Made by a program: the position numbers and the translations under genes
The notes under the pieces: model-generated
The model's input: only the letters and a program-made list of their open reading frames with translations
What the model was told of the DNA's origin: nothing
The model's database searches: none
Origin: Kiritimatiellia bacterium
GTDB lineage: Bacteria > Verrucomicrobiota > Kiritimatiellia > UBA8416 > JABMPJ01
Reading direction: 5' to 3'
NCBI GenBank assembly: GCA_030745755.1
Contig: JASLOA010000004.1
Span: 3,462-67,461 of the forward strand
Length of the DNA stretch: 64,000 bases
Shown: piece by piece, positions 7,302 through 44,484 of the stretch
How positions within the stretch are numbered: position 1 is the stretch's first letter
Layout of the letters: every line of letters starts with the position of its first letter

Positions 7302-10300
7302 ATGCATAAGGCTGTGTTGACCGTTATCTCTTTGTTGGCGTGCCAGGCTGCGATCGCTGCGGGGTACGATTTCTACGCCAACACGGTGTACCCGGGCGCG
7401 AACCTGCGGCCGGATGTTGACCTGTACGAGGTCAAGAAGTCCGGGGGCGGCGATCCGCTGGCCTACGAAAGACGCGAGGTCGATTGGTGGCCACGCAAGG
7501 GCGTCGACATCATTGCGGTTAAGAAAGGGATGCCGCTGCGCACATGGACGTTGCGTGCCGGGCCTCTCAAGACAATCAGTGCCGGCGAAGTGAAGCCGGT
7601 GTTGGAGGAGATGGAGACGCTTGAGGCCAAGCAGAACTGTGGCGATCGCTTCTTCCGCAGGATCAGGGGCTACCTGTATCCGCCGGCAAGCGGCGAGTTC
7701 ACGTTTGTGTTTGCTGCCGACGATCAGGGCTCGTTGTTCCTGAGCACAGATGAGAAGCCGGAGAACAAGAAGCGGATAGCCTGGAACCCGGTTTGGGCGA
7801 AGCACAGACGATGGAACATGTTCCCCTCGCAGACCTCAGACAAGATCACGCTCGAGAAAGGTAAGCGTTACTACATAGAGGTCGTTCACCAGGAACAATC
7901 CTTCGGCGACCACGTGTCGGTCGGCTGGAAGGGCCCGAGCATTGACGCGATCACGATCATTGACGGCGAGTTTCTGTCAGGCCTCGACGGCAAGCGCGGC
8001 AAGATCGTGGCCGAGCGCAAGACGACGCCGGTGCTCGGTAAACGCCAGGCCTGGTCGGCTCCCGGGCAGTTCGAGGCCCACCTCATCGGCTTCCGTGGCA
8101 TGGGCAACACCATGACCAGCAAGTTTGGCGGCGGCGACGGCGGTCCGCGTGAGCCTGGCGTAGTCCTGCGCCTGCCGGACGGGCGTAAGCGTTTCTTCGG
8201 CACCGGCAGCTTTAGCGAGCAGGACAAGACCTACATCATGGACCTCTACGTGAAGGAAATGACGCGGATCAAGAAGGGCCTGGTCAAGAGGGAGTACATC
8301 AAGCGGCCGAACGCCAAGTTCCCGGACAGCGCCAAGCCCGGCGAGCCCGGCACGACGCACGTCGAGAGCGAGCATGTCGTGTGGATGTCCGGTAGTCAGG
8401 CGGGGAGCGACGACGATCCGTGGATGAATGAGTTGGAGCCGGAGAAAGCCCAGTGGTACCGCGATGGCTCGATCGAGTGCGCGGAGTACTTCTGGGCCCT
8501 GAACGAATATGCCGGCCACCTCATGCCGTTCTGGGACCATACGAAGCTTCACAAATACCAGATCACCGTGCCCGGCACGAAGCGCGACGGCTACCTGGTG
8601 ATTCCCGGCTATGCCGGCGGCGGCTATGGCGGCTGCGGCATCAAGGGCGCCGGCGGCGGTCCGTGGGCCGGCGCGCTGTTCCACGAATGGGGGCACGGTG
8701 CAAGGCCAGCCCCGCAAGGGATCGGCAGCGGCGAAGCCTTGGCCGATACGTACCAGACATTTCCCGATCCGGGCAACATGAAAGGCAACCACCACATCGC
8801 CCGGCCTTGGCGCAACGTGTTCAATGGCGATGGCGGCTATGGTTTTACCGTCTTCTACAACATGACCGGCGAGGATCCGAACTGGGGCTACGGCGGCTTC
8901 GCCGCGATGCCCTTTGGTGAAGCAGAATGCGTATTCATGACCATGGCGCGTACCGGCGAGCAGCGCGGGATGTTCAAGGACGGGATACGGGGATTCGGCG
9001 ACACGGTCGGCGAATACGGCGCGCGACTGACAACCTTCGACTGTGAGCTTGAAGATAGTTACCGCCGTACCTACTTCGCGCCTACACGCAACTGGCTCGA
9101 GACGGTCGACGCCGACAAGCGGATCTACCGCATCCCACTCGAGGAGGCATCCGAACCGTTCGGTATCAACATAACCCGGCTCGTGGCCGACGAGCAGGCA
9201 GGCAGGATCGTTGTGGACTTCAGCGGCTTGCACGATCCCGAGCTCTACAGTGACTGGCGCGCCTGCATCATTGCCGTTTCGGCGGACGGTACACGTCGCT
9301 ACTCCCCGATGTGGAGCAAGGGGAAGATGTCATTGCGCCTTGAGCCGGGCGATCTGTCGCACTGGCTCAGCGTTGCGGCGACACCGACCGCGCTCTATGC
9401 GGCCAAAAGCGGCGGACGTCGCGGCGGTGTGGATAAGAGGAAGCTATACAGTGGGCGCCATTCGTATCGCTATCCGTGGTCGGTTCAGTTGACCGGCGCG
9501 CGTCCGGGGTCCCCGCGTGAATGTCGCGCGGATATGGATGATGCCGATCTTCTCTACAAGGTGGTCGATTCGATACCGGCGCCCCATGACAAACCTGCTG
9601 GTGCGCGCCTGCTCAAGAAGCTCAAGGCCTTGCGTGCCGCCCTGGACGAAGAGCGGGACAAGCCCGGCCTGACGGACGCACAATCCTATACCGTCATGAA
9701 TGTGTATGGTGATGTTCAGACTGAGATCGACCGCATGAGCAAGGGCGCGCGTCATCCCAACGGCGGCGGCTGGGTGCAGGCTACGGCAACGGTGGCGCCG
9801 ACGGCTTATGTGGGCCCGAACGCCATGGTGCTGGATGGCGCTCACGTGTTGGACAACGCTATTATCGATGAGTTTGGTGTCGTAATGGGAACGGCCGTCG
9901 TGTCCGGCCACGCGAGAGTTTGCGGGCAGGGCGTGGTCAGAGACAAGGCGACGGTCGGCGGCTACTCACGTGTGTGGCAGACTCTCAAAGGGGAGGATGC
10001 TGCGAAGCTCATGCCCAAACGGCCCGGCGCAAAAGATGTCCATGAGTTTGGGTTGTGGGCCAACTACGCGATGGATCGGGGCGACAGCACAATACTTGAG
10101 GACTGGTACCGGTTCGCGTTTAGCGCCGACAGGGGTTACGCCGCAGACCTGACACCCGTGCTCAACGGTTATCTCTATGGGAAGCCGGAATTTGTGGCTG
10201 ATGGCGAGCATCTCGGATTCCGCTTTGATGGCAAGAGGCAACACGGCGAGCTTTGTCCGAGGGTGGCCGATCTTGGGGCCATCACGGTCAACATCTCACT

Positions 10301-12284: not shown

Positions 12285-12303
12285 AAGAGTAGAAATGGGG
12301 AAT

Positions 12304-12420: not shown

Positions 12421-13395
12421 ATGAAGGCACGAACAGCAAAAGCCGCATCGCTCGCGTTGCTTCTCGCATGCAGCACCGTGCGTGCCGATGACGCGGCGGG
12501 AATGAAGAGGCTGGCGGCAGGGGACTGGACGGTGCCGGGCATCGAGCTGGAGATGAAGCGGATACCGGCCGGCAGTTTCACGATGGGTAGTCCCAAGAGC
12601 GAAGCGCATCGGCGCGATGATGAGGTCCAGCACAGGGTCGAGATATCGAAGCCGTTCTACATGGGCGTCTACGAAGTTACCCAGGGCCAGTTCTACAAAC
12701 TGATGATGCCGAAGGATTACGACTACAAGGCGTGGCAGTACAAGCGCGGCCCTGTCGCCGACGGCGCAGCCTATCATTTTCGGCCGCGGCCCCATGGCAT
12801 CATGTTCAACGACAGCTCCGTGGGCGGCCCGGTGCAGTTGCAGTATCCCATGGAATGCATTAGCTGGGAACGGTCGCGTGAGTTCTGCCGGAAGCTCACG
12901 GAGACCGAGCGCAAGGCTGGACGCCTGCCGGAAGGCTATGTCTACAGGCTGCCTACCGAGGCGGAATGGGAATACGCCTGTCGTGCAGGCACCAAGGGTC
13001 CCTACAATGTTGATAGTGACCCTGCAAACATCAAGAGCTTGAAGAAGTTTGCGTTCTATGGCGGCAACAACTGGTGGCAGACGCGTACCAGTAAGTGCGG
13101 CGACCATCGCCTGCCCAATGCGTGGGGTTTATACGACATGCATGGCAATGTGTACGAGTGGTGCCTTGACTGGTATGGCGCGTATCCTTCAGCCACCTCA
13201 CCGCAGGCGGACCCGACAGGTCCGGCGGAAGGCAAGGAGAAGGTCGTGCGTGGCGGGTGTTTCTACCTGGACGACGACAATGCACACATGTTCCTGCGTT
13301 CGGCGAGCCGCTATTCAGTGCCGCCGGACGTCGACTTCTACGGTATCGTCGGCATGCGCCTTGTGCTTGCGCCAGTTGTCGCGGGGGCAAACTGA
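12421..13395 (+). CDS. Secreted FGE-sulfatase/SUMF1-fold protein
   Basis: IPAGSFTMGSP, EVTQ, RLPTEAEWEYACRAG, PNAWGLYDMHGNVYEW, VVRGG, GMRLV. Confidence 0.92.
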   Translation: MKARTAKAASLALLLACSTVRADDAAGMKRLAAGDWTVPGIELEMKRIPAGSFTMGSPKSEAHRRDDEVQHRVEISKPFYMGVYEVTQGQFYKLMMPKDYDYKAWQYKRGPVADGAAYHFRPRPHGIMFNDSSVGGPVQLQYPMECISWERSREFCRKLTETERKAGRLPEGYVYRLPTEAEWEYACRAGTKGPYNVDSDPANIKSLKKFAFYGGNNWWQTRTSKCGDHRLPNAWGLYDMHGNVYEWCLDWYGAYPSATSPQADPTGPAEGKEKVVRGGCFYLDDDNAHMFLRSASRYSVPPDVDFYGIVGMRLVLAPVVAGAN

Positions 13396-15684: not shown

Positions 15685-15717
15685 TCGAATTCCAGAAGCA
15701 TCCACCACGGAGAATCC

Positions 15718-15819: not shown

Positions 15820-15834
15820 GGCAAGAGGGGGTCG

Positions 15835-15951: not shown

Positions 15952-18900
15952 TCACCGCCCAGCCCTGCCGTCGCCTGCCCCCTGTGCCGCCCGCTCAAGC
16001 TCTGCGGCCGTGCGCGGATAGTCATAGGCCTTCAGGTCAGCGATAGCACCTTTGAACATGTACTTCGCGCCTTCCGTGGGGTTCAGCATGCCTCCGATGG
16101 TCATCGGGTAGCCGCCGATGGTGTCCATTGTGGCAAAGTCGCTCTTCCCATCCAGTTTGCCATCGCGGTACACGCGCACCTCGGTCCGCGCGCCGCCGTC
16201 GTAGACCCATGCCAGGTGCGTCCACTTGCCTGTCACATCGCGATTGGTGTTCCAGGCGACTCCGGCTCGGCTCGGCTTCACGAGTGCCTTCCTCTGCCTT
16301 CCGCCGAATCCGAGCGATACATGGCGCCGCGCGACTTCCTTGTTCATTGCGAATAGCCTGGCGTCACCGTCCTCGTCGCAATAGGCCCACATCTCGATGG
16401 TGAACGGATGGTCGTCGGTCAGCCCTTTGGGCAACGTGATGTCAGACTGAAGCATCGCCTTGCCGTTGAACACAACGGCCTTGCGCCCGCCAAGCGTCTT
16501 CACTTCCGCGCTGCGATCGATATCAACCGACATCCCGAACTGGCCGTTCAGCTTGCCGGTGTTCTCAATACGCCCAATCGCCTCACCATCCCTGGCATTT
16601 CCGACGTTGATGGCCACCTGCAGGTTCCGCGTGGCAGCGCTCTCGCCGGCCGTGAGCTTCTTGATGTCGCCAGCGCTCAACGCCTTGTCGAAGATGCGTA
16701 GCTCACGCAAGATGCCGTACTCCCCCGCATCACCAATGGTGAGCCTGCCCGCACGCGCAATACCGTAATCCACCTTCTCCTCTCGGAGCAAACGGCCGTC
16801 CCGGTAGAGCTTCGCTATGCCATTCTCATACGTAACGGCAAACTTCATCCACTGGCATACCAGTCCCGCATTGCCGATTGGGTAGTTGAACGACTTCTCT
16901 CCGCGTCCTCTATTCCCTTGCTTTCCCCATTCTAGGCAGGGGCGGCCGGACGCGCCGGACAACACAATACCTGTGCTATCGGGTGCCTCGCCCCACGACA
17001 CAATCCGTTGTTCGGCGGCGCCGTATCTGCTGCCGAAATCATAGTAGATGGTGAACGGACCGTTCGTCAGGCAATCCGGCGCAGCGAACGAAGATTCAAG
17101 CCTCAGGCCCTTTGCGAGCTGGACGCCGGTCCGTCCCCGGAACTCCTGGGCCGTCAGCGCAAACGTGGTACCAAGCGTCGCCGGCACGAATGTGCCGCCA
17201 GCCTTGCCCCTGTTATTCCATGCGGCAAGCTTACCGTCGGACAGCTGATCGGCCTCCAAGTCCAGGATGACACCTTCACGGGTAGTGAAAGACCACAGTG
17301 GGCCATTGCCTGCACGCCAGTAGTAGACCTTGCCCGGTGCCAGCTCAGGCCTGAACTCGCCGGGCGCGAACACTCCCACAGGCTTTACTGCATTCGGTGC
17401 ATCGCCAAGATAGACCTGCTCCTTGTCACCACCAGCTAATCCTTTGCCCCAGCTCAAAGCCGGACGCCGACTCGCAACCGCCATACCACGATCTGCCGGC
17501 ACCGGCTTGTGCGGCACGGCGATGAAATCATTCCTGCTGTTCTCGGCCAGTTGCTCGGCAGTCAGCGCAAGCTGATGCACGCGCAGCACGGCTATCGCGC
17601 CATTGAATGACTTGCGCCAGTTCCAGCGCTGTCTGTCATAGTGCCCGCCGAGATGCAGGTAGTCACCATCGTCGGCCCACAACACGCCATCCTGCTCGCC
17701 CACCTTCTGGCCGTTGCGGTAGATCTCGGTCTTGCCCGAGACCCGTGCCGAGTCGGTCATCCGCTTGCCCTTCTTCGCCTCACCCTTGAAGACCATGGCC
17801 ATATGCTGCCACCCCGGCTGCAGGTGCGCCGCGCCGAGCTGGAAGCTCTTGCCCCACTCGAGGACGACCTCGTCACTCGACTGAGCGTCAGAGTAGACCC
17901 AGGCTTCGAGCGTCCCGCTGACCGGACCTTCAGCAGCGGCACTGCCCTTGGCATCGATCACGCCGATCATCCTGTCCATACCGTCGAAGTATGGCGCCGG
18001 TATGCCTGCGACGTCCTGGAACTTGGGCGCACTGCCGGAATAGTGCCAGAAGCTGTGGATATCGTTGTGAATCCGGCCCTGCAGCGTGCCGTGGTTGGCA
18101 GCGCTCCGTAGCCACGGCTTGTTCATGCGTTTTGAGTAGAGCGGACGATGATACTCGGCGCCAACTTCACTGAGGAACCGCGTGTCGATGTCGACATAGA
18201 GCTTCCCACCCACATGCGGGGGAACGCGCCGCTGGTAGAAGGCGAGTTCGTCCGCAAAATGGTTTTCCACCTGCTCGTGATCGATGTCGTAGTTGTAGGC
18301 GCGGACATGCGCGACTGCGCCTTTGAAGCCGCCGACAACCTGCCCGTCGGTAACACCGCCGCCAACGAACATGCGCACGTTAGGCTTCAGCGCCAGCTTG
18401 TGCTTGGCGCGCTGGATCTCCTTCCCATCAACGTAGATCAGGAACTTACCTTCGGTATCATCCAACCCGCCGCTCTCGAACACCCAGGCCACGTGATGCC
18501 AGCCGTCAGCAAGCGCAACGCCAGATACCTCACCGGAAATCCCCGCGTTGAGCTGGTAGGCAATCGTATTGGGTCCCACTTTGAGCCGGGCGCCCTCTGA
18601 GTCCGGCCCCCAACCGAGAATAGTCTGTGTGCCATCAGCTTCCGGACCGCAGTTGACCCACAGTTCGACCGACCACTCGCGGTTGTCCTGGAAGCCCTGC
18701 TTCGTGTCCAGGTTCCAGAGCATGGCATCATCGCCATCAAAGAGAACCGCCGTGACCCCGTCAATCGTCTCAAGGCTGGGGTCGCCGAGATTCTCGAATG
18801 CACCTGTGGACTCGGGATCTCTGACAGGGCGCGTGGTCCCGTCAGGCAGGTCCTGTATATTCACCAGGCCGCCGCGATTCTCCCAACGCGTCACGGTGTC

Positions 18901-22208: not shown

Positions 22209-22221
22209 GGAAATGTGAACG

Positions 22222-24554: not shown

Positions 24555-25213
24555 CACTGAAGCTTGAGAATGTGACAAAGAGCTACCGGAAGGCAGGCGT
24601 AGATATAGACGCCGTGGATACTGTGTCTCTCAGCATTCAGCCAGGTGAATTCGCGTCGGTGACGGGCGCCAGTGGCTGCGGGAAGACAACGCTCTTGCTC
24701 CTGGTGGGCGGTCTCCTGCACCCGTCATCAGGGACAGTCAGCATCTGTGATATTGAACCTTACGGGCTTTCGTCCAATAAGCGCGCGCGATTCAGAGCAG
24801 AGCATATCGGGTTCGTGTTTCAGCAGTTCTGCCTCATACCATACCTTGATGTGCGTGAGAATATAGTCTCTGCCGCGCTGGCGGCCCGACACCCAAATGC
24901 CGAACTACGCGCTGAGGAACTCATGGAGCAGTTCAATTTGAGCGATCGGGCGAAGCATTTGGCGGAAGAACTGAGCACGGGCGAAAGACAACGCACCGCA
25001 TTGGCAAGAGCCATGCTGAACAAGCCAAAGGTGTTGCTTGCTGACGAGCCTACAGGGAATCTTGATGACGCGAATGCCGAAGTGGTCCTCAAAGCACTGG
25101 CCGGCTTCGCGGGGAATGGCGGCTCTGTGCTGCTGGTCACGCATGATGCGCGCGCCGCAGGCTATGCTGACACTACGCATCGTATGCAGGGCGGCAAGCT
25201 GTCAGTGGACTGA
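24551..25213 (+). CDS. ABC transporter ATP-binding protein (LolD/MacB-type)
   Basis: GASGCGKT, IGFVFQQF, LSTGERQR, LLADEPTGNLD, LVTHD. Confidence 0.95.
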   Translation: MTLKLENVTKSYRKAGVDIDAVDTVSLSIQPGEFASVTGASGCGKTTLLLLVGGLLHPSSGTVSICDIEPYGLSSNKRARFRAEHIGFVFQQFCLIPYLDVRENIVSAALAARHPNAELRAEELMEQFNLSDRAKHLAEELSTGERQRTALARAMLNKPKVLLADEPTGNLDDANAEVVLKALAGFAGNGGSVLLVTHDARAAGYADTTHRMQGGKLSVD

Positions 25214-30609: not shown

Positions 30610-33600
30610 ATGAAGTACGCCACACACATCCTTACCGCCTCTGCGATCCTTTCGGGGGCGATTTGCCTGGCGGCCCCGCCGAAGACGGAGTCTCGCTCCG
30701 ATCAGTCCTTCCACGATTTCCATTACGACGCACGCTACCCGGGCTACCGTCGCGGCGACGTAAGCTTGGACAAAGTCACCCAAAAGGGAAACGGCGACCT
30801 GAAGACCTACCACGAACGCCGCGTCGAATGGTGGCCTAAGCGCGGGGTGGACGTGGTCCCACTGGCTGACATCCCCCATGCGCCGCTTCGCACGTGGACG
30901 GTGAAGAAACACCTCCCCCACAACTTCTATGTCGAGAACCTGCCTCGGGGACAATTCAAAGCGCACCTGCTGGGCTTTCGCGGTGTGGGCGACCCGTACC
31001 CGATGGACCCGAAGGACCCCGATTCGTTCCACTGCCCCGCCGTCGTGTTGCGACTGGCCGACGGCCGGAAACGTATCTTCCTCGGCGAGTATTTCACCCC
31101 GGAAGATCGGCAATACATCATCAAGACCTACATGAAAGAGCGCAAGCGGGTGGATGCGACGCTCCTGAAGGAAGAGTACCATGTAACGGCCCGGGATGCA
31201 GAACATCCCGAGGGCGAAAGTCATCTCTACAAACCCGGCAAGGTGCGGTTCGACACGACGCACTTCACCGTCCCAACCGGGTCGCAAAGCCCCACGGATC
31301 GCCCCGCGAGCCACTGGATCAACGTCAAGAAGCAAGACGAAACCCGGGCGATGCGGAACCACTATCTCAGTCAGCTCGAAAGCTTCTGGGCCTACATGGA
31401 GTACGCCGGTTGTCATATGCGATTCTGGAAAGACCCGGTGATGCACAAATACTCCATCCGCATCGGCGGAACGCTGTACGACGGCCATGAGGTCGTGGGC
31501 AGCGAACGCGGGGGCGGCGGAGGAGGCTATAGTGGCTGCACGACAGGCGGCCCGTGGATCGAGATCGTGTTCCATGAGTGGGGACACGGAATGCAGACGG
31601 CGAATATCTTGTCGTTGGGTGGTGGCGAGACCGGCTCGGACGGATGCGCCATCATGGCTGAACCCCATGTCGTCGCCAAAGCGGACCACCAGATGCTCAA
31701 GCCGTGGAAGAACTTCTTTCATGGCGCCTACCCAGGCACGGGCGGATACGAAATGCTCGCCGACGACCCGAACTGGGGATACGCAGTCGTCCCCATCCTG
31801 CTGGGTATGGCCAGCGAGGAAGACCTGACCCCAATGCACGTGATTGCTCACCTGGGCGAAGAACGCGGCATCTGGCCCAAAGGACAAGGGATTCGCGGAA
31901 TGGGCGACCTGATGGGCCAAATCGGTGCACGATTTGCCGAATTTGACGTACAGCAGGAGTACCAATTCCGAGGATGGAACGGCACGGCGAACTTCTCCTA
32001 CCTCGAAGCCGTCGACCCGGCCAAGGGACTCTATCGCTGCCCGCCCTACGAGGCGCCCGAGCCATTCGGTGTACACGCCTCGCGACTCGTAGCCAAGAAG
32101 GACGCGAAAGAGATCAGCGTCGACTTCAAAGGCCAATTTGACCCGGAGACCTATTCCGATTGGCGTGCGTGCATCGTCGCGGTCGGCAAGGACGGCACCT
32201 GCCGGTACTCGCCGCTGTGGAACAAGGGCACGATGACGATGAAAGTTCAGCCGGGCGACCGACGCTACTGGCTAACCGTCACAGCCACCCCAACGGCCCT
32301 GCTGGAATCGGCCGGCACGCTCTACCAAGGTGCGTTTGCGTTCCGGTACCCCTTTGACGTGGTGCTAGAGAATTGCCGACCCGCCCGATCCTTGGGCATC
32401 GTCGCAACGAAAGAACGCGCGTTCCTGCTGGGTCTGTATGACCGTCAGCGTGCACACGACCCGGCGCTGTTCACCAGCGAGGCGGCACGCGAAACATTTA
32501 TGAACTCCCTCAAGCCCAGCGCCGCGATGGCTGAAGCAACGCTCGAAAAGGAAGGGCTCTTGAAGAAGGAGAAACCTGCCGCCCGCGATCACCGACGCAT
32601 GGGTACGCTCCGAAGCCGCATGGAACGCCCAAGTCTGCTGCTGGACGACCGAGGCGGCCATCGCCATCCCAACGGTGGCGGATGGATTTCGTCGACCTCG
32701 TTTGCCGCGCCGACGGCCTACGTCGGCCCGGAGTGCATGGTCCTCGAAGGCGCGAAGGTGCTCGACCATGCCTCACTCGTCAACGGCGCCGTCGCAATAG
32801 GCAAGGGCGCTGTCGTGAAGAATCACGCCCGACTCAGCGGCAAGGGCGCCGCGATAGGCTTGGTCGAAGTGGGCGGATACGCCCGCGTCATTCGCCCGAT
32901 CGCCAACCATATTACAGCCCAGATGGACCCCCTGTCGGTCAAAACCACCGTCGTGCCGGTCGTGCCGATGCGCATCAAAGACCTCTCCGCCGATGGACTC
33001 TTTGCCAACTACGATTGCCGCCGCCCCGAGACCGTCCTGTTCGAGGACTGCCTCAAAGAACGGACGACCGGGCCCTTCTTCCTGGGCCATCACACCGACG
33101 CGAAGGAAATCTTCTTCGACGGCATCCTGGTGAACAAACCGGGCTTCGAAGCATTTGGCCGTGCCGATGGCGCGCTGCTGTTCGACGGAGAAACGCAATA
33201 CGCAGAAGCCGACCCCGCCGTGGCGGACCTCGGCGAGATCACCGTGATCTTGCGGGTACGCCCTGCCACCACGAAAGGCCAACAGGTGCTCTTCGATTTC
33301 GGTAGCGGACCGGGCGACTACTTCCGACTCGCCCTGCACGGCGCCGAACCCGTGCTCGAGTGGAGCGCCGGTGGCAAGAGTGACTCGCTCACGTCAAGCG
33401 TCGCACTTCAAGCGGGCCAGTGGGCCGTCTGTCGCGTGGAGATCAGCGGAACGGCCGCATCTCTCTTCGTAGGCGACAAACAGGTCGCGTCTAAGGCGAC
33501 GACGTTCCGTCCGGCACAGGCCTGTGTCCCGGGGCAAGGGCGTCGCAACTACATCTTCCGATCACGCGATGAGGCGACCCCCGCCTACAGCGCCGGCGCG

Positions 33601-34854
33601 CTCGACTACCTGCGAATCTACTACCTGGCACTGGGTGGCAAGCCCGCACCGGCTACGCCGCTGATCAGCCCGGTCAAGCCCATGGCTGAAATTCTCAAGA
33701 TGGAAGACGAAGAGTTCGGCGACCGAAGCGCACGCGTGCAGGTCTATCAGGATCTGTTCCGCAGTTCGTCGCTGGCCAAGACGATGCGGGACTATAACGA
33801 CCGATTCGAAGCCCGCGCTGTGGAGAATTCGATGGGCCCGACGGCGGAGACCCGAGAGGCGGTAATCGCGTTGCGTGCAAGAATCGAGCAACTCGAAGCC
33901 GACATCGAAACGAAGAGCAAGTCGGTCAAGCGCGAGTACGACGCGAGGAAGAAGCCCGCCGCAAAACCCAAGACAATGGCAAAAAGCGTGCACGAGCGCA
34001 TCGCCGAATTGGAAAAGAAGCGTCACGCGTTGCGTCCTGCGATGAAGGCCGAATCGGCCGCCGCGGAGAAAGCCCACAAGGCTGAGGTGGCTCGCATTGA
34101 GACGACGAAGGAATACGCCGCCTATCAGGCCGCCAAGGCAGAGCGAGACCGACAGCGGGCCCTCGAACGCGAGAGCAGGAAACAGGCCGACGCGATAAGG
34201 GACGAGGTGCGAAAGAGCGTGCTGGAGGCCAATCCGGACCTCGAAGCGAAGGAGGTAGACGCGCGGACCTCCGATCAACTGCTGAAGAACAAGCCCTACA
34301 TCGAAACCGCTGTCCGGGCCGCCTACGCACAGCAGAAAGCACGCGAAAAGCTGCCCGAATTGCCGATTCCAGAGCCCAAACCGACCCCCGCGAAGGCGGA
34401 GTTCGACGCGTTGGGCCGCGAGATCAACCAGTTGAGAGGTCGGTCGCGTAACAGCAGGCCCGAGGCCGGTTTCGAGGCAGTGAAGCGGAAAGCACTCGCC
34501 CCGCTCACCGACGAACTGGGCCAACTCAAGGGCGAACTGACGGCGATGTTGGCCCGCAACTCGCTGGCCGCCCGCCCGGATGAGTATCGCATGCGTGAGG
34601 TGACGAGGTACAAACGGCAACAGATGGTCGGTCGGAACAGTCAGCTATGGTCCAATGCCGCCCAGATCATGGCCGGCCCGGACGCGCCCGACGATCGCAA
34701 GCAGCTCCGCGCTGCCCTGACAGACCAGGGCACCTGGCACACCGAATGCGATTGGGACACGATGAACAAGTGGGAAAAGGATTTTGACAATCTGAACCCG
34801 CGCCTAAAACGCTGGCTGCGTCGAGCGAAACCCTATCGTTATGCCGACAAATAG
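30610..34854 (+). CDS. Giant secreted DUF6055/Svx-like zincin, paralogue of 7302..12284 lacking PA14
   Basis: Signal peptide MKYATHILTASAILSGAICLA; ERRVEWWP, LRTWT, HEWGH (31573-31587), DPNWGY, YSDWRACIVAV, HPNGGGW, LamG, coiled coil. Confidence 0.8.
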   Translation: MKYATHILTASAILSGAICLAAPPKTESRSDQSFHDFHYDARYPGYRRGDVSLDKVTQKGNGDLKTYHERRVEWWPKRGVDVVPLADIPHAPLRTWTVKKHLPHNFYVENLPRGQFKAHLLGFRGVGDPYPMDPKDPDSFHCPAVVLRLADGRKRIFLGEYFTPEDRQYIIKTYMKERKRVDATLLKEEYHVTARDAEHPEGESHLYKPGKVRFDTTHFTVPTGSQSPTDRPASHWINVKKQDETRAMRNHYLSQLESFWAYMEYAGCHMRFWKDPVMHKYSIRIGGTLYDGHEVVGSERGGGGGGYSGCTTGGPWIEIVFHEWGHGMQTANILSLGGGETGSDGCAIMAEPHVVAKADHQMLKPWKNFFHGAYPGTGGYEMLADDPNWGYAVVPILLGMASEEDLTPMHVIAHLGEERGIWPKGQGIRGMGDLMGQIGARFAEFDVQQEYQFRGWNGTANFSYLEAVDPAKGLYRCPPYEAPEPFGVHASRLVAKKDAKEISVDFKGQFDPETYSDWRACIVAVGKDGTCRYSPLWNKGTMTMKVQPGDRRYWLTVTATPTALLESAGTLYQGAFAFRYPFDVVLENCRPARSLGIVATKERAFLLGLYDRQRAHDPALFTSEAARETFMNSLKPSAAMAEATLEKEGLLKKEKPAARDHRRMGTLRSRMERPSLLLDDRGGHRHPNGGGWISSTSFAAPTAYVGPECMVLEGAKVLDHASLVNGAVAIGKGAVVKNHARLSGKGAAIGLVEVGGYARVIRPIANHITAQMDPLSVKTTVVPVVPMRIKDLSADGLFANYDCRRPETVLFEDCLKERTTGPFFLGHHTDAKEIFFDGILVNKPGFEAFGRADGALLFDGETQYAEADPAVADLGEITVILRVRPATTKGQQVLFDFGSGPGDYFRLALHGAEPVLEWSAGGKSDSLTSSVALQAGQWAVCRVEISGTAASLFVGDKQVASKATTFRPAQACVPGQGRRNYIFRSRDEATPAYSAGALDYLRIYYLALGGKPAPATPLISPVKPMAEILKMEDEEFGDRSARVQVYQDLFRSSSLAKTMRDYNDRFEARAVENSMGPTAETREAVIALRARIEQLEADIETKSKSVKREYDARKKPAAKPKTMAKSVHERIAELEKKRHALRPAMKAESAAAEKAHKAEVARIETTKEYAAYQAAKAERDRQRALERESRKQADAIRDEVRKSVLEANPDLEAKEVDARTSDQLLKNKPYIETAVRAAYAQQKAREKLPELPIPEPKPTPAKAEFDALGREINQLRGRSRNSRPEAGFEAVKRKALAPLTDELGQLKGELTAMLARNSLAARPDEYRMREVTRYKRQQMVGRNSQLWSNAAQIMAGPDAPDDRKQLRAALTDQGTWHTECDWDTMNKWEKDFDNLNPRLKRWLRRAKPYRYADK

Positions 34855-38982: not shown

Positions 38983-41900
38983 CTAGTCCGAGATCTCGTC
39001 TTTCGCCAACGGATGATCGGTGAGCATTGCTTTGTCCGCGGCGGATTGGATTTCTTTTGCGGTTCGGGGGTAGTTGTATACCGTCAGCGAGCGGATGGCT
39101 CCGTTGAAGGGGTTGGTTTCGCCTTGGGTGTCGCCGAAACCGGCGCCGAGGTACATCGAGTATCCGGGCAGTGTCGCGATCGACGTGGTGCGGTCGGCGA
39201 CTTGTTGGCCATTGATGTAGATGCGGGCCTGGCTCCGCGGTCCACCGTCGTAGACGTAGGTCACGTGCATCCACTGGTCGGCTTGGACGCCCTTCGGGAG
39301 CGAGCGGTTGTATCCGACGCCCTGAGAGATGCCCGTGTTACCCGGGGAACCGAAGTAGGTTTCTCCCCGCACGCGTCCAAGCTGTGGCGACAGGGCGAAG
39401 ACGGCCTCTTTCGTATTCAGCTTCTTGGGACGAATCATCATCTCGACCGTGAACGGGCAATCGGCCGTCAGCGTGGCCGGCGTCTTGGCTGTAGACATCA
39501 TGTAGGTCGTCTTGCCGTTGAACTCGACGGCTCGCAGCCCATCTACCGTGGTGACGGTCGGCGTGTGGTCCACATCGGGAATCGTCGCGAACGAACCCTT
39601 CAGCGACCCGGTGTTCTTCAGCATCGAGACCCGCTGATTCTTTTTCACGTCTTGGCCCACGCGGACGTTGACCAGGGCTTCATCGTCGCCCACGGTGTGG
39701 TCCCTGGCGAGGGCCTGGACCTCGTCGGCCGACAAGGCTCGCCCCAGAATCTTCAGCGAATGCAGGTAGACATAATTGATGCCGTTTTGCTTCGATCCGA
39801 TCACCAGCTTACCGTCGCCGGGGATGTCGATCCCGTCGCATTCCATCTCGTTGGTCATTCGCCCATCGACGTAATATTTCAGCATCTTGCCGTCGTAGAC
39901 GAGCGACACGTTGCGCCACATGTAGGCCATGTGCGGATTGAAATCGTTGTCCTCACGAATGTTGTAATGCGTTTCACGTTTTGGGGCACGGGAGAACGCA
40001 ACCTTCACCTGTTTCTTCTGTGCGTCGAGGCTATGTGCCGTAAACGCGATCGCGTCTTGCGGCAGCTGCACACCGTAGTCAAAGGCGGCGCCGTCACCGC
40101 ACCAGCTCAGGACGCGGGGCCCGCGCCGTTGGCTGACCTCGTCGACGATTTGGACGTTCAGCGTGAACGGACCTTTTTTCAGCGCTTCGGGCGTGTCGAA
40201 CGTTGCGGTCAACGTCCGGCCGGGGGTCATCTTGATCGCATGGACCTTATTGAACACCATGCCGGTGAGACCAAAGATGTCGCCGCGTTTTCCTGCGACG
40301 AAATCGACCTTGGCCGACCCGGTGTTTTTCCATTCGTCCAGCTTGCCGGGGGGCAGGGCCTCGGCCTGCAGTGCGATCAGCGCCGGCGGGGTCTTGCGGG
40401 CCGGCGGAACCACGCCACTGCCGCCCTTGGCGAACACATGCGACGTCGCGTTGGCGGCGATTTGCTCGGGGGTCAATTTGCCCTTGTGCAAACGCACGGC
40501 TGCGATGGATCCGTTGAAGTAGTCCTTCCAGTTCCATCGGATATCGTCATATCGTCCGCCGAGGTGCATTCGCTGATTCGCCTTGGGTGCGAGCGCGCCG
40601 ACGGTTTTCTTGATCGGGCTGCCGTTGACGTACACGTTCGCGGGGCCATCAAACACCACCGTCACCGCCTGTTGTCCCTTGGGCAGGTTGTCGGCGGTCA
40701 GCAGGAAATCGCCCCATTGCAGAATCACTTCGCCGGGGTTCTCTGCCTGGTTGTCCAGCCACAATTCCAGCGTGCCGGGTGCGTTCCTGATGAGCTCAGC
40801 GGTCGGCTCGAACCCAGAGACCATGCGGTCCATACCGTCGAAGGTCGGGATCTTCCCGCCCAGCTTCTTTCTCAATACCGGCGTGCTTCCGGAGTATCCC
40901 CACGTCGTCGCGTGAATATCGTTATGCACGCGCCCGCCAAGGATGCCCTTGTTGCTCCAGCTCCGCAGCCACGGTTTTCGCAGGCGTTTGGGGTACGTCG
41001 GCTGATGATACCGCTTCTGCGTGTCGGCCAGCAGGCGCGCGTCCAAGTCGATGAACAACTTGTCGGCCACCGCCAAATCGTCGCGGGTGAAGCTCGGCAA
41101 TTGCATCGAATAGAACCGACGCACTTGATACTCGGTCAGGTCGTAATCGTAAATCTTCACCGACGCCAACGCGCCAAGCAAACCGTCGCTGACCTTGCCG
41201 CGGGCATCCACTCGACCGCCGACATAAATCGACTGCTTCTGCGGAATGCTGAATGTCATCGGCGTCTCGTGTTCGAGGATTCCGTTCACATAGACGCGGT
41301 ACAGGCCCACGCCGGTGTCGATCGAGCCTTCTTCGCCCGGCCCCTTGTAGACCTGTATGACATGGTTCCAGTGGCCCTTCGGCAGGTTCAGCCTGGCGGT
41401 CTTCTTTTGGCCATGATCGTAGATCGTTCCGTCGCGGTTCAGATAGAAGCCGGTTCCGTTGTCATCTTTTTCGCCCCATCCGGCGATGAGTTGCTCGGCG
41501 CTGCCGGAGGCGTCCGCAGCTTGGTAGACCCAGTATTCGATACTGAACGGCAAGTTTCGGCTGAGGTTCCATTTGATCTTCTCGTCCCACTTGAATGCGG
41601 TGGTTCCGTCGAAGCTGACGGCAGAGACGCCGGCGACGGTGGTGAGTGTGGGCTTGCCGCCGTAGGGGAGGAAGCTTCCCTTGGTTCCGGGTCTGGGGTA
41701 GAGCCGGGCGGTGGTTCCATTCCAGGCTTTGATCCAGGCATTGTTGTTCCACTTCGTCACATGTCCCGACGCATCGGTTTCGACATCGGTGTTTGCATCG
41801 AGATCGACCATCCGATCGCCCGGAAGGTAGTCCGTCAGCGCGACGGCCTGTCGATAGTTGTTACTGAACATGGCTTCGCGTCTGGCAGGATCACCAAATG

Positions 41901-44484
41901 CCTGCATGAAGACGGCCATATTCTCGTGGTAGTTGTTGGCGTTGTATCCGGCGAGACCGATGTTGGTATCGGCGGTCCCCAGCCAGATATCCTCGATCAG
42001 AGAGAAGTACCCAGGAACACCAAAGCCCAGCAGATTGAAGACCTCGTGTCCCATCTCGTGCACGAGCAGCAAGTCCTTCGATTCGACTCCGCCGTAGCTC
42101 TGTCCCGTGCCAAACCCGCGGAAGAAGGGCTTGCCTGATCCTTCATAGGAGGTGAGGGTGCTTGCGATGTTTCGCTGTGCTGCCAGGGCGAGCAGGTATC
42201 GGTTTTTTCCGTACATCTCGGTGGTTGCGATGACTTTGTGGAGCATCATGTCCTGATCGGATCCCATCGAGGCCACGGCGCCGGGGCCGAAGTCCAACTT
42301 CACTATTTTCGCACCGCGACCGGCGGATTGGTTTGAGTCCAGGTTCGGCAACGACGAGGGAATGTCTCGCTCGGGGGTGAAGTAGGGCTTGGTTGTGAAC
42401 GACCACGTGTCGCCCTTGGCGATGTAGGAGGTGAGCAGTTTTCCGGGTTTCATTCCGTGGTGGGGTTGGCCTTTAACCTTCGGTTCGGTTCCCGGCTCGC
42501 GTGTTTCGTATGCGATATCGACGCGCCAGTAGTAGGTCTTTCCGGGAACGGTCTCGGTTCCGTTCAGCTGATACTCCGAGGTGCCTCCCCAGCGACCGGG
42601 GCGTACCCGCGCGAGGGGTTCGGTCATCGCGTCGAGTTCCTCTGGTGTTTCAGCTACATACAAATGCTGAGAGGAGGCGGCCGGCGCCGGGCCGCCCGTC
42701 CATTTCAGCGTGTAGATCGTGTTGACCGATTCGCCCTCAGCCGGGTTGGGGTCTCGTGCGATTCCCGTGCCCGCGGAGAACGACCAGACGTCGCCTGCGA
42801 CCAGGAGATTTCCCTTGTCGTCCAGCTGGTCGACGGCCCAGAAGTAGGTGCGTCCGGGAAGTGTGTCAAACCGCGGCAAGGAGGACTCTTTCGTGCGTGT
42901 GGCCTTGGCGCTCCGGTTCTTCACGGCCTCTTCGTCCAGCGACAGGGCGACATCGTATTGCGTCGCCTCCGGGTGGGCGGCAGACCAACGCGGCGTGGCA
43001 AACTGTGCCATCATCTTTTCTTTGTCCGCCGGTTGGGGGCCCGCTGCCTTCGTGAACCCGGCATTCAGGCGGACACCCAGTGGCGTCATCGCGTAGTCGT
43101 ACAGCCGTAGGTCGGCGATTCCACCGTCGAGGACGCTGAGCACATCGGGTCCCTGAGCGGCCATATACCACGCCGATCCCCAGTTTCCGCCAAGGAAGAA
43201 ATGTTTCCGCCTATCTTCGGGGATGGTTTTTCCGGGCGTCTTTCCATCTTCGCTGGGGGTGACGAACGATCCGGGCCCATACATCCACCGCCGCATCGGA
43301 TTGAGGGTGTAGCTCCCGTGGTCCGTGCCGTAATCGATGCTCATGATTCGGTAGTAGTATCGGGTTCCTGGCTCGAGCTTCTCGAACGAGAATTGCACCT
43401 CGCCCTCCGGTGCCCACGCGATCGACGCACACTGATCCCAACGCCAATGCCGCATCTGGAACCAATGCTTATGGTCGACCTTGTCGAGGTAGCACGAGAC
43501 GGTGGCCGTCCCATTTTTCGCAAGCAACTGCGCCTGGACCGTCGCGGACTCGGACGTCAGCTTCGTGACGGTGGGTGTCTCGACAATACTGTCGTACTGC
43601 GTTTCGTAGGTCATCTCGCCATCGACATAGACGCGGAACACCCCATCGTCTCCGCCGGTGTAGGTGTAGGTCACATGCTGCCATCGGTCGGCGGGATGGA
43701 TCCCGGTGTGTCCCTTGCGGTCGCCCTTCGTGCCGCGTGCTGTTTTGCTCATGCCGCCGATATCGCACTCGCGTCCATGGTTGAGGATCGTGCCGTGGTC
43801 ACCCCCGATGCTATGCCAGGACAGAAGCGTTCTCCCACCCTCGACGGATGCATCGGTTTGTGTGTACAGCCAGGCCGAGGCGGTGAATGGCTGCTTTTGG
43901 TCCAAACGATCCTCGAGCGTGAAGCTGCTGGTCATCATCTCGAACTTCGGTGGCGCGAACTGCCCCTTCTTGTTGGTCTCAAAGAAGATGCCTTTTCTTC
44001 CCTGCACCTCGCGAACGTGCGGCGGGTAGTTGATCTTCACAAACTCGCCCCCGAGCGTGCCGGTGTTTTTTACTTCCTTCAGCGGCCCGATGGGCAAATC
44101 GTCCACCGTGACGTGGATGAGTCGGTTTTTGCTCTTTTCATCACCGGAGAAGGTCCAATGCGTCATTTCCCTGGGGAAGTCACGCAGAGCCATCTGCGAA
44201 AGCAGGTAGCACATGTCCGGGGCCGAGAAGTAAAAGAGCGGAACCCGCAGGTTCTTGCCCGTCTTGGGGTCGATGAGATTCGCGCGGTACTCTTCGAGCG
44301 AGTCTAGCTTGCCCCGGAAGTTTCCCGTCTTGTTCCCCCAATGCTGGAATACTCTGTCCTGGGTCGGTTCCGGGGTGAAGGCCTGGGTCGTCTTCTCAAT
44401 TCCCGCATGGGCTATCCCGCCACACAGCGTCGCCAATACGAGGAGTCCTACCGTCAACGTCCGATACCGATTCGAATGAGTCAT
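38983..44484 (-). CDS. Giant secreted multi-LamG zincin, paralogue of 15952..21522
   Basis: Start ATG 44484 with GGAG RBS and signal peptide; shared SWHS(I/L)GGxHGT, GxxWGSxWY, HEMGH (42046-42060)..ENMAV, KPWLRS, GR(V/I)HNDIH, WxYSGS, FDGMDRM. Confidence 0.82.
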   Translation of the reverse strand: MTHSNRYRTLTVGLLVLATLCGGIAHAGIEKTTQAFTPEPTQDRVFQHWGNKTGNFRGKLDSLEEYRANLIDPKTGKNLRVPLFYFSAPDMCYLLSQMALRDFPREMTHWTFSGDEKSKNRLIHVTVDDLPIGPLKEVKNTGTLGGEFVKINYPPHVREVQGRKGIFFETNKKGQFAPPKFEMMTSSFTLEDRLDQKQPFTASAWLYTQTDASVEGGRTLLSWHSIGGDHGTILNHGRECDIGGMSKTARGTKGDRKGHTGIHPADRWQHVTYTYTGGDDGVFRVYVDGEMTYETQYDSIVETPTVTKLTSESATVQAQLLAKNGTATVSCYLDKVDHKHWFQMRHWRWDQCASIAWAPEGEVQFSFEKLEPGTRYYYRIMSIDYGTDHGSYTLNPMRRWMYGPGSFVTPSEDGKTPGKTIPEDRRKHFFLGGNWGSAWYMAAQGPDVLSVLDGGIADLRLYDYAMTPLGVRLNAGFTKAAGPQPADKEKMMAQFATPRWSAAHPEATQYDVALSLDEEAVKNRSAKATRTKESSLPRFDTLPGRTYFWAVDQLDDKGNLLVAGDVWSFSAGTGIARDPNPAEGESVNTIYTLKWTGGPAPAASSQHLYVAETPEELDAMTEPLARVRPGRWGGTSEYQLNGTETVPGKTYYWRVDIAYETREPGTEPKVKGQPHHGMKPGKLLTSYIAKGDTWSFTTKPYFTPERDIPSSLPNLDSNQSAGRGAKIVKLDFGPGAVASMGSDQDMMLHKVIATTEMYGKNRYLLALAAQRNIASTLTSYEGSGKPFFRGFGTGQSYGGVESKDLLLVHEMGHEVFNLLGFGVPGYFSLIEDIWLGTADTNIGLAGYNANNYHENMAVFMQAFGDPARREAMFSNNYRQAVALTDYLPGDRMVDLDANTDVETDASGHVTKWNNNAWIKAWNGTTARLYPRPGTKGSFLPYGGKPTLTTVAGVSAVSFDGTTAFKWDEKIKWNLSRNLPFSIEYWVYQAADASGSAEQLIAGWGEKDDNGTGFYLNRDGTIYDHGQKKTARLNLPKGHWNHVIQVYKGPGEEGSIDTGVGLYRVYVNGILEHETPMTFSIPQKQSIYVGGRVDARGKVSDGLLGALASVKIYDYDLTEYQVRRFYSMQLPSFTRDDLAVADKLFIDLDARLLADTQKRYHQPTYPKRLRKPWLRSWSNKGILGGRVHNDIHATTWGYSGSTPVLRKKLGGKIPTFDGMDRMVSGFEPTAELIRNAPGTLELWLDNQAENPGEVILQWGDFLLTADNLPKGQQAVTVVFDGPANVYVNGSPIKKTVGALAPKANQRMHLGGRYDDIRWNWKDYFNGSIAAVRLHKGKLTPEQIAANATSHVFAKGGSGVVPPARKTPPALIALQAEALPPGKLDEWKNTGSAKVDFVAGKRGDIFGLTGMVFNKVHAIKMTPGRTLTATFDTPEALKKGPFTLNVQIVDEVSQRRGPRVLSWCGDGAAFDYGVQLPQDAIAFTAHSLDAQKKQVKVAFSRAPKRETHYNIREDNDFNPHMAYMWRNVSLVYDGKMLKYYVDGRMTNEMECDGIDIPGDGKLVIGSKQNGINYVYLHSLKILGRALSADEVQALARDHTVGDDEALVNVRVGQDVKKNQRVSMLKNTGSLKGSFATIPDVDHTPTVTTVDGLRAVEFNGKTTYMMSTAKTPATLTADCPFTVEMMIRPKKLNTKEAVFALSPQLGRVRGETYFGSPGNTGISQGVGYNRSLPKGVQADQWMHVTYVYDGGPRSQARIYINGQQVADRTTSIATLPGYSMYLGAGFGDTQGETNPFNGAIRSLTVYNYPRTAKEIQSAADKAMLTDHPLAKDEISD

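Follow-up and report, generated by a model that had tools for sequence, protein, structure and literature searches.

The stretch of Kiritimatiellia DNA analyzed here (the window; 64,000 nucleotides, nt, with 58–60% G+C) lies on contig C4 of a 3.07-Mb assembly in 63 contigs that is 92% complete. It carries four giant open reading frames (ORFs), each opening with a signal-peptide-like stretch (read from the sequence by eye) and each encoding a putative zinc-dependent peptidase of the zincin type. The ORF list of the window confirms all four at the coordinates given in a preliminary, model-made reading of the same DNA (the initial annotation).

7302..12284, plus strand: P0001, 1660 residues, putative giant zincin of family A
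30610..34854, plus strand: P0002, putative giant zincin of family A; the longest ORF, from 30550, has 1434 residues
15952..21522, minus strand: P0003, 1856 residues, putative giant zincin of family B
38983..44484, minus strand: P0004, putative giant zincin of family B; the longest ORF reaches 44622 and has 1879 residues

The shorter starts at 30610 and 44484 are plausible because the signal-peptide-like stretch begins there and homologues do not align upstream. P0001 and P0002 share 34% identity over 1205 residues (BLASTP, E 8e-159), and P0003 and P0004 share 32% over their whole length. The best BLASTP match between the two sets (E 0.007) places a PA14 stretch on a LamG stretch and is not meaningful. 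As judged from these comparisons, the four genes are two paralogous pairs, families A and B, that are unrelated to each other.

The HExxH motif occurs exactly once in each protein, as HEWGH in P0001 (residue 461) and P0002 (residue 342) and as HEMGH in P0003 (residue 777) and P0004 (residue 855 in longest-ORF numbering), which bears out the distribution of the two variants first proposed. The Laminin_G_3 model (LamG_3, PF13385) scores 33.8, 38.6, 189.4 and 182.4 bits in the four proteins against a cut-off of 27.6; the LamG domains predicted for all of them are thus confirmed by Pfam, with one stretch in each family A protein and five in each family B protein. Sequence searches of Protein Data Bank (PDB) chains with P0001 and P0003 returned nothing useful. 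Eight sequencing runs labelled as seawater metagenomes, from five studies, hold 0.89–0.99 of the words of the locus; two of them are perhaps the source of the assembly. No RNA run was among those listed as containing the locus, a negative that carries no weight in either direction.

Putative catalytic domains of the two families

Both family A proteins match DUF6055 (PF19527), with 67.3 bits for P0001 and 61.9 bits for P0002 against a cut-off of 27. They also match the Svx/AvrXca model NF040510 (E 4.5e-31 and 108.1 bits for P0001; E 1.5e-23 and 83.3 bits for P0002), the best-matching stretch being a hexapeptide β-helix at residues 813–899 and 701–778, respectively. Among 30 aligned family A members, DUF6055 exceeds its cut-off in all 30, LamG_3 is present in all 30 and Hexapep in 20. 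A search of a 5.8-billion-protein set produced 225 relatives; in the 120 of these that were listed, DUF6055 is always present and LamG mostly so, and they are labelled as metagenome-assembled genomes (MAGs) of Verrucomicrobia, Kiritimatiellae, Planctomycetota, Sumerlaeota or Armatimonadetes. On this sequence evidence, family A is related to Svx only distantly and is not orthologous to it.

Residues His342, Glu343, Gly345, His346, Gly347, Glu360 and Asp364 are invariant across the 30 aligned members. A glutamate follows HEWGHG after 12 (P0001) or 13 (P0002) residues, in agreement with the gluzincin pattern HEXXHX(8,28)E established for Svx by mutagenesis; Svx itself has HEXXHX(22)E, and its E-to-A mutants are less active (PMC9266454). 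A more canonical DUF6055 paralogue outside the window (L053, C4 114554-118981) contains HELVH...E...N within its Pfam match, so that the HExxH...E motif belongs to the DUF6055 domain. The HExxH of family A therefore stands in the zincin context that the initial annotation had supposed.

The predicted order of parts in family A is a signal peptide, about 65 residues, an SHD1-like module with two loop insertions, the gluzincin, a left-handed β-helix, LamG, about 450 residues resembling a coiled coil and a short C-terminal end, conserved family-wide. P0001 additionally contains PA14 (41.3 bits in Pfam). The parts are located as follows.

7641..7964, plus strand: PA14 domain of P0001 (residues 114–221), between the RTWT and FEAHLIGF strands of the SHD1-like module
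8043..8246, plus strand: second part of the SHD1-like module of P0001 (residues 248–315); its first strand, PLRTWT, lies at ~7536-7556
8319..9581, plus strand: putative catalytic region of P0001, with HEWGH at residues 461–465 and Glu478
9738..9998, plus strand: left-handed β-helix of P0001, resembling the Svx acyltransferase-like part (residues 813–899)
10269..10664, plus strand: LamG of P0001 (Laminin_G_3, 33.8 bits)
P0002, plus strand: SHD1-like module ~30877-31149; putative catalytic region 31237-32469 (HEWGH at residue 342); β-helix 32650-32883; LamG 33184-33633; then coiled coil and C-terminal end

The signal peptide of P0001 carries a lipobox-like LLAC, as read from the sequence. A CxPxR motif of the kind recognized by formylglycine-generating enzymes (FGEs) was considered for family A and dropped, P0002 having CRPAR and P0001 an alanine in place of the cysteine.

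Pfam finds five LamG_3 stretches and FN3-like domains in family B, for which the predicted order is a signal peptide, an SHD1-like module, LamG, FN3-like domains, the catalytic domain and four further LamG domains. The 5.8-billion-protein set holds 29 relatives, 26 of them of about 1750–1860 residues, and none of the 29 has a functional name. His777, Glu778, Gly780, His781, Tyr815, Asn819, Glu822 and Ala825 are invariant in 22 of 22 full-length members and also in 21 of 21 catalytic domains, the latter set including five more paralogues and 14 other MAG loci.

An AlphaFold2 model of residues 650–900 of P0003 (pLDDT 81.3, pTM 0.73) displays the N-terminal subdomain, active-site helix and helical C-terminal subdomain of the zincin fold. 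A Foldseek search with this model places PPEP-2 and PPEP-3 chains in all of ranks 1–10 (best E 0.025, probability 0.97–0.99), with lethal factor and PPEP-1/Zmp1 next. When 48,161 representative chains were compared by VIA-align, the top matches were PPEP-3 (Z 10.7 over 157 residues), PPEP-2 (Z 9.7) and the catalytic domain of lethal factor (Z 9.3), with an M90-like hydrolase in fourth place (Z 7.2). The HExxH of family B is thus also predicted to lie in a zincin context, closest to the M34 peptidases. PPEP-3 is described with His153, Glu154, His157, the oxyanion residue Tyr190 and the third ligand Glu197 (PMC12828418). His777, Glu778, His781, Tyr815 and Glu822 of family B match this spacing, the His-to-Glu distance being 41 against 40, with Tyr815 placed seven residues before Glu822, the putative third ligand, which is part of ENMA.

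A profile of the 21 catalytic domains was run against 1.84 billion representative sequences and matched 846 proteins at E ≤ 0.001, a number that falls to 126 at E ≤ 1e-10 and to 23 at E ≤ 1e-30. The 23 clusters at the strictest threshold are essentially the giant family itself, and the other matches listed are mostly proteins of 200–900 residues. Two of ten smaller relatives scanned pass the ATLF cut-off (41.1 and 33.8 bits against 27.4), and the remainder mostly show sub-threshold ATLF or M90 matches. The fold matches, the PPEP-3-like residue spacing and these relatives together indicate that family B is an unnamed, divergent branch of M34-like zincins, as far as can be judged from a modelled structure. 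The family B profile matches PDB chains only through LamG-type domains. Leads from the ESM Atlas for the catalytic part (Mx1, ATLF and M90, with scores ≤ 0.77) were not used as evidence. The parts of the two proteins are located as follows.

21169..21351, minus strand: SHD1-like module of P0003 with a predicted SH3 fold (residues 58–118)
18853..19545, minus strand: putative catalytic domain of P0003 (residues 660–890), with His777, Glu778, His781, Tyr815 and Glu822
P0004, minus strand: SHD1-like module ~44185-44349; putative catalytic domain 41683-42402; five LamG domains

An RRRF sequence in P0003 is at most a candidate twin-arginine translocation signal, since the N-terminus is not conserved in family B.

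The N-terminal modules

The modules behind the signal peptides had been described as SHD1-like, a resemblance that profile and fold comparisons support in a different way for each family. In a search of the four N-terminal fragments, Pfam SHD1 (PF03983) matched P0003 alone (E 0.0033, 17.7 bits; 19.3 bits in the genome scan). The model reaches E ≤ 1 in three of 22 family B members and is not among the Pfam matches listed for family A (25 of 41 families). As a reference, 12 bona fide SHD1 domains were taken from genomes of the same phylum. SHD1 occurs in 10 of 61 phylum genomes sampled, with one or two in each, so the expansion assumed for bacteria of the Planctomycetes–Verrucomicrobia–Chlamydiae (PVC) group is not seen here.

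Profile–profile alignment (hhalign) of the family A module with the 12 reference domains gives a probability of 91%, with a local E of 8.9e-7 over the C-terminal half and a global E of 1.4e-7 over 68 columns, in which RTWT, FKAHLIGF, VVLRL.DGRKR and FS..D..YI are all collinear. The family B module aligns with a probability of 33% (E 4.6e-4). A Foldseek search of the PDB with an AlphaFold2 model of P0003 residues 36–135 gave weak SH3-fold matches, none at E ≤ 0.001, among which the SHD1 domain of Sla1 (2hbp) has the best geometry, with a root-mean-square deviation (rmsd) of 1.5 Å over 42 columns. When the 995 best of these chains were realigned with VIA-align, 2hbp ranked first (Z 5.4, rmsd 2.3 Å, 52 of 66 residues), ahead of a chromodomain (Z 3.7). 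Both families thus appear to carry an SHD1-like module of SH3 fold, in family A as judged from profiles and in family B from the model.

The modules appear to share with SHD1 of Sla1 the same small barrel and helix, and family A keeps RTWT, the aromatic strand, V.L..DG and LS..D..Y in the same order. They differ from it in that both fall below the Pfam cut-off and that two loops of the family A module bear insertions of 7 to about 170 residues; in P0001 and three others of the 30 aligned members a whole PA14 domain occupies the first loop. SHD1 of Sla1 is known to bind NPFxD. The simplest reading of the modules is a putative peptide-binding exosite. Fusions of secreted SH3-fold domains to zincin-like peptidases, and their combination with SHD1, have been noted earlier (PMC5906684).

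Paralogues, partner genes and promoters

A tblastn search of the genome identifies eight family A and six family B paralogues, seven of the 14 on C4; four A–B pairs each lie within about 6 kb. The more canonical protein L053 is a ninth DUF6055 protein; it combines DUF6055 with PA14, LamG and a GH115_C domain and has no family A N-terminal module. Among 401 phylum genomes sampled, family B occurs in three and family A in seven, this genome included, and one other genome has both, 16 kb apart.

Family A was examined in 78 metagenome loci, whose contigs are not independent and come in part from the same studies. Of the 46 loci whose downstream flank is 1.2 kb or longer, 36 have an FGE-fold ORF on the same strand no more than 1.5 kb downstream; of the 46 with an upstream flank of that length, 8 have one no more than 1.5 kb upstream. 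Adjacent or fused FGE-fold genes are found in 44 of the 66 loci with any usable flank. Family B appears in the flank of nine of these 66, always directly upstream and on the same strand, the orders seen including FGE-B-A and B-A-FGE; one related MAG has the order A-GDSL-A-FGE-B. The expected co-occurrence of the two families elsewhere is therefore observed. In the present genome an FGE-fold gene adjoins six of eight family A paralogues, and fusions exist in both orders, with the FGE-fold domain N-terminal in P0046 and C-terminal in P0123, P0137 and P0140, where it comes immediately after the conserved C-terminal end. The tightest partner of family A is the FGE-fold gene, represented in the window by two genes.

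12421..13395, plus strand: P0154, FGE-fold protein directly downstream of P0001 (FGE-sulfatase 153.4 bits; lipoprotein-like signal)
27156..30179, plus strand: SASA esterase, GH2_N-like and FGE-fold protein directly upstream of P0002 (FGE-sulfatase 121.1 bits)

The best PDB matches of P0154 are PvdO (1.6e-21), FGEs (~2e-17) and PorK/GldK (1.7e-16). P0154 has YLDDDNAH where the solved FGEs have LCHDSYC or LCHESYC, and thus lacks the cysteine pair of LCHDSYC, which we take to be the catalytic pair of FGEs. No cysteine pair is found at this position in 13 rows of the partner alignment, as read from its printed blocks. A complex prediction for P0002 residues 41–640 with the FGE-fold domain of the upstream gene scored 0.00 (mark 0.32) and is no evidence either way. 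A near-identical signal peptide, MKY[AT]T.IL..., heads P0002, the FGE-fold genes L058–L060 and P0046; repeated fission and fusion of FGE–A genes would produce such a common signal peptide.

Sixteen family B loci from other MAGs, ten of them flanked by 2.8 kb or more on one side, were compared with the window. Family B is accompanied by a family A or A-like gene in two (L042 and L046), by FGE-fold genes in four (L039, L040, L042 and L046) and by ABC-type genes in three (L034, L036 and L044). The trio of a 362-residue ORF, an FtsX permease and an ATP-binding cassette (ABC) ATPase that is divergent from P0003 recurs in full in L044, a MAG labelled Planctomycetota. The ABC exporter put forward in support of the system is thus matched clearly by this one locus, the full trio not being seen in the other 15. 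The enzymes and transport genes next to the giants in the window are as follows.

6447..7268, plus strand: GDSL esterase (Lipase_GDSL_2, 87.4 bits), first gene of the P0001 unit; an orthologue is in the same place in L042
34887..37169, plus strand: GH106 α-L-rhamnosidase-like protein, 32 nt after P0002
37203..38684, minus strand: GH29 α-L-fucosidase (Alpha_L_fucos, 276 bits)
22222..25213, plus strand: 362-residue membrane protein or lipoprotein, FtsX permease and ABC ATPase, divergent from P0003

Beyond the window the same contig encodes a GH127 β-L-arabinofuranosidase with PA14, a GH2 enzyme, a heparinase II/III-like protein and three WD40 giants, and on contig C49 a sulfatase lies between A and B paralogues. 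A role in the breakdown of glycoproteins or glycans, as had been suggested, agrees with these neighbours: GDSL, SASA, GH106 and GH29 inside the window and GH127, GH2, the sulfatase and the heparinase-like protein outside it. The GH127 gene (L057, C4 111016-113370) adjoins L053. The three WD40 proteins (L050–L052, C4 66903-93587, past the window end) have 1612–1689 residues, with propellers near residues 1000–1300; one of them also has PA14, and the three flank a further B–A pair. Two MoxR ATPase genes in the window (46974-48149 and 58785-59804), with 72–75% DNA identity over about 500 nt, each head a Bat-like set (DUF58, BatA/VWA and others). Between the ABC genes and the P0002 unit, at 25391-26521, lies a 376-residue ORF that contains two stretches of Y1 transposase (IS200 type).

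A 20-nt core, GTCGGAAATGTRCCGWMAAT, occurs at six sites in the window, against 0.03 expected, and an element of 86–88 nt that is 94–95% identical between copies is present at 6201-6286, at 21568-21653 and, inverted, at 26725-26812. The core sites lie about 37 nt upstream of −35-like and −10-like hexamers (sequence read by eye). Two of the three regions listed are divergent promoter regions, in the intergenic spaces 6184-6446 and 21523-22221.

6201..6372: divergent promoter region; motif at 6259-6278 (minus strand), facing a gene for a 1011-residue β-propeller protein, and at 6353-6372 (plus strand), facing GDSL and P0001
21568..21973: divergent promoter region; motif at 21626-21645 (minus strand), facing P0003, and at 21954-21973 (plus strand), facing the 362-residue ORF, FtsX and ABC genes
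26725..26812, plus strand: 88-nt element with motif at 26773-26792, upstream of the unit of SASA-FGE, P0002 and GH106; 94% complementary to 6239-6326

All four giants had been placed behind a shared operator, which holds for the units of P0001, P0002 and P0003 and fails for P0004. The sharing of a promoter with a conserved upstream element by three of four units suggests one regulator, on the sequence evidence. Across the genome the extended motif is found at eight places, seven on C4, one of these directly upstream of the fourth family B paralogue of that contig. A full copy at 11931 (plus strand) of contig C19 has the family A paralogue of C19 some 6 kb away. In a related MAG the motif is retained ~100 nt before the GDSL orthologue and was not found upstream of the P0003 orthologue (L034). 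Upstream of the latter, at ~9700-9900, a different word, TTATTCTGTCACCAATTATTCTGTCA, occurs twice in its place, so the promoter appears to have been exchanged between close relatives.

The sixth core site, at 15281, belongs to a dead duplicate (15277-15949, 87–89% identity) next to the 3′ end of P0003, in which the promoter and both ends (5′ and 3′) of GDSL are joined by some 100 nt from the start of P0001 and by the 3′-terminal part of the β-propeller gene. A second copy, of the promoter and the GDSL 5′ end, lies before the 362-residue ORF at 21950-22200. These duplicates point, at the sequence level, to recent recombination among the units. Recent duplication explains part of the motif sharing, as the near-identical long elements and the dead copies with the GDSL promoter and 5′ end imply, and common regulation is not its sole cause. 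Upstream of P0004, an ORF fragment without a proper start at 44700-45010 (minus strand), probably a pseudogene remnant, occupies the space that holds the shared promoter in the other units. Long intergenic hairpins of one family, with ~35-nt arms and made up of CGACGAGAACGG-like units, are found at 12297-12389, 30166-30295, 30414-30547, 38799-38883, 59824-59892 and 61640-61732, after or between genes; one follows the stop codon of P0001 and two lie between the SASA-FGE gene and P0002. They look like repetitive extragenic palindromic (REP)-type elements or terminators.

Proposed function and relation to known systems

The interpretation that we favour, with a probability of about 0.55, is that the window encodes two unrelated families of giant, Sec-exported, multidomain zinc endopeptidases, side by side in an island for the breakdown of glycans and glycoproteins, which most likely form a system degrading glycoprotein backbones. 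This interpretation draws on the domain content, invariant catalytic residues, fold likeness, paralogue expansion, conserved neighbourhoods and DNA motif described above, and it predicts export, protease activity, a substrate class, exosite roles and co-regulation. From the initial annotation it retains the zincin context, the SHD1 likeness, the co-occurrence and the glycoprotein/glycan role, and abandons the common tag and the MoxR-vWA operon.

In such a system the nearby esterases and exo-glycosidases would strip acetyl, fucose, rhamnose, β-L-arabinofuranose and sulfate from the substrate. The LamG, PA14 and β-helix lectin-like domains, together with the SH3-fold modules, would hold a decorated polypeptide, probably rich in proline or hydroxyproline (Hyp). 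The family A zincin would then cut the backbone in the manner of the extensin-cleaving Svx, working with a dedicated non-catalytic FGE-fold lipoprotein encoded adjacent to it or fused, and the family B zincin might cut at Pro-rich sites like its nearest structural relatives. GH127 enzymes act on β-L-arabinofuranosides of extensins and arabinogalactan proteins (AGPs), according to PMC10850190, and the β-helix domain of Svx is reported to read the arabinan decoration of extensin and to be needed for extensin cleavage (PMC13164431). Hyp/Pro-rich glycoproteins are favoured as substrates since GH127 would target the same decoration that the Svx β-helix reads; this argument by analogy comes from one gene about 50 kb from the window.

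Several observations weigh against this interpretation. Family A does not reach the equivalog cut-off of 625 bits for NF040510, its Glu spacing of 12–13 residues differs from the 22 of Svx, and a simple secreted-enzyme model leaves the C-terminal coiled coil of about 450 residues unexplained. In family B no Pfam peptidase family exceeds its cut-off; ATLF (PF07737) matches one of 22 members (E 0.011) and M90 three of 22, all below cut-off. The catalytic model has no Foldseek match in the PDB at E ≤ 0.001, and VIA-align Z scores of 9–11 are only moderately above the background of 7–8 stated for the tool. For the N-terminal modules, the SHD1 cut-off of 23.7 bits is reached nowhere, and both the pLDDT of 72.3 for the family B module model and its Z of 5.4 to 2hbp are modest. 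The best motif match upstream of P0004 has six mismatches and is no better than background, the window containing 11 matches of this quality. Accessory genes differ from locus to locus: GH29, GH106 and the MoxR-vWA genes (MoxR, DUF58 and BatA) were seen beside family B in none of the 16 related loci, so that neither the two glycosidases as linked support nor the MoxR-vWA operon as part of the system, both of which had been proposed, is borne out. With accessory genes this variable, the case for a Hyp/Pro-rich substrate comes down to Svx, the PPEP likeness and the one distant GH127 gene.

A more specific proposal, doubtful when all of its parts are taken jointly, is that the FGE-fold lipoprotein and families B and A constitute a dedicated two-protease machine, conserved in marine bacteria of PVC type and in other uncultured bacteria, that dismantles Pro/Hyp-rich algal glycoproteins. 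Its targets would be arabinosylated, fucosylated and sulfated extensin-, AGP- or mucin-like proteins. Family A would be an Svx-like O-glycoprotein endopeptidase, and family B, as the first M34/PPEP-type enzyme outside the Firmicutes-style single-domain enzymes, would cut the Pro-rich core. The SHD1-like modules would serve as Pro-rich exosites, and the non-catalytic FGE-fold protein would be an obligate subunit, anchoring family A to the cell surface, or activating it there, via its coiled-coil stalk.

Much as PPEP-1 frees the adhesins of its own cell in C. difficile, the proteases could instead be directed at the organism itself, cutting its own giant surface proteins, such as the WD40/PA14 giants, and so switching between attachment and release. 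The PPEPs are the nearest structural relatives of family B, and PPEP-1 cleaves two adhesion proteins (PMC12828418); three WD40 giants of 1612–1689 residues are encoded in the same island, and the family A coiled coil would lend itself to a stalk on the cell surface. Against this stand the steady presence of glycan-trimming enzymes and lectin-like domains, which point to foreign glycoconjugates, and the fact that Svx, the nearest characterized relative of family A, cuts host extensins (PMC13164431). No gene for a PPEP-type substrate was identified adjoining family B, and self-directed remodelling appears unlikely.

The initial annotation suggested that SHD1 may serve both families as a tag for docking or sorting. 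It is improbable that the module directs them in this way to a single partner or one route of export, be it the ABC exporter or the MoxR-vWA proteins. The position of an SH3-fold SHD1-like module right behind the signal peptide in both families is what such a tag would look like, and the trio of the 362-residue ORF, FtsX and ABC genes is divergent from family B both here and in L044. However, the modules of the two families are alike in fold only (hhalign probability 4%, E 0.01), and among 16,613 six-frame ORFs of the genome the hidden Markov model (HMM) of each module matches its own family only, with eight matches for A and six for B, so that no other exported protein carries the tag. A shared tag is disfavoured because of this low similarity and this restriction of each module to its own family. 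The HMM of true SHD1 domains, run against the same ORFs, matches two other small ORFs and no member of either family. Tolerance of insertions of 7 to about 170 residues by the family A module, and the MoxR, DUF58 and BatA counts given above, argue in the same direction.

Adhesins or surface fibres with vestigial zincins, binding glycans through LamG and PA14 and cutting nothing, would account for the mostly non-catalytic length of each protein (five LamG domains in B, the coiled coil in A) and for the match of an NCBIfam TafC fimbrial model to the LamG parts, but a dead site is unlikely because every catalytic residue is invariant in both families, in 30 of 30 members of A and in 22 of 22 members and 21 of 21 catalytic domains of B, even where identity falls to about 30%, and we consider this reading very improbable. 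Equally hard to credit are secreted toxins or antagonistic effectors that would pair a lethal-factor-like M34 protease with lectin-like targeting of other cells: the catalytic domain of lethal factor does rank in the top three by fold, and the LamG profile weakly matches lectin-like domains in the heavy chains of clostridial neurotoxins (E 4e-4), but such domains are widespread and the resemblance is one of fold. No immunity or toxin-delivery gene was seen in the annotated stretches (the window, with eight further genes from the island and C49), and the giants sit among carbohydrate-active enzymes, with six to eight paralogues per genome and conserved metabolic neighbours.

For the favoured glycoprotein-degrading system, the closest known counterpart of family A is Svx/AvrXca of Pectobacterium and Xanthomonas (NF040510, DUF6055), which is likewise secreted and has a gluzincin HExxH...E core followed by a left-handed β-helix. 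Family A is two to three times longer than the 601-position model, adding the SHD1-like module, LamG, the coiled coil of about 450 residues and the C-terminal end; it has the conserved FGE-fold neighbour, and it occurs in marine MAGs of PVC type, Sumerlaeota and Armatimonadota. The text of the Svx paper lists Proteobacteria only, and the strings Verrucomicrobi, Planctomyc and Kiritimatiell are absent from it, although its phylogeny tables may list more taxa (PMC9266454). The M60-like O-glycopeptidases (enhancin, ZmpB and IMPa) also combine a gluzincin with carbohydrate-binding modules and cut mucin-type glycoproteins. Their likeness to family A runs via Svx alone, which was modelled on ZmpB (PMC9266454); Pfam M60 has no match at E ≤ 0.01 in any of the four proteins.

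Family B resembles the secreted M34/ATLF enzymes (PPEP-1, PPEP-2, PPEP-3 and anthrax lethal factor) in its predicted fold, HExxH helix and Tyr–Glu spacing. It differs from them in an identity of about 10–15% and in having no ATLF match above the cut-off and, whereas the PPEPs are single domains of about 200 residues, its catalytic domain is embedded between FN3-like and LamG domains in a protein of 1.8–2.1 thousand residues. P0154 shares the FGE-sulfatase fold with the non-catalytic proteins PvdO and PorK/GldK, the latter being lipoproteins of type IX secretion; it has a lipoprotein-like signal and is without the cysteine pair, and no type IX secretion genes were seen in the same annotated stretches.

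A literature search with limited terms found no description of these giant proteins. The features that are new, as judged from sequence, are the eight family A and six family B paralogues, the position of B upstream of A, the conserved FGE-fold partner and the unnamed family B, with family A as an elaborated Svx-like O-glycoprotein peptidase. The 14 giants occupy about 2.3% of this small marine genome of 3.07 Mb (calculated from their lengths), an expenditure which argues that they matter to the organism. Family B is rare, with 23 clusters at E ≤ 1e-30 among 1.84 billion representatives, and has no peptidase name in Pfam or NCBIfam; with it, the PPEP/lethal-factor clan would come to include giant proteins with lectin-like domains. 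Family A, paired with a cysteine-less FGE-fold protein, supplies a testable partner for one branch of the very large and mostly unexplained FGE-sulfatase expansion of these bacteria. Degradation of the protein part of marine glycoconjugates, such as algal cell-wall glycoproteins and proteoglycan-like exopolymers, is much less understood than that of the sugar part, and this locus offers two concrete candidate enzyme families for it.

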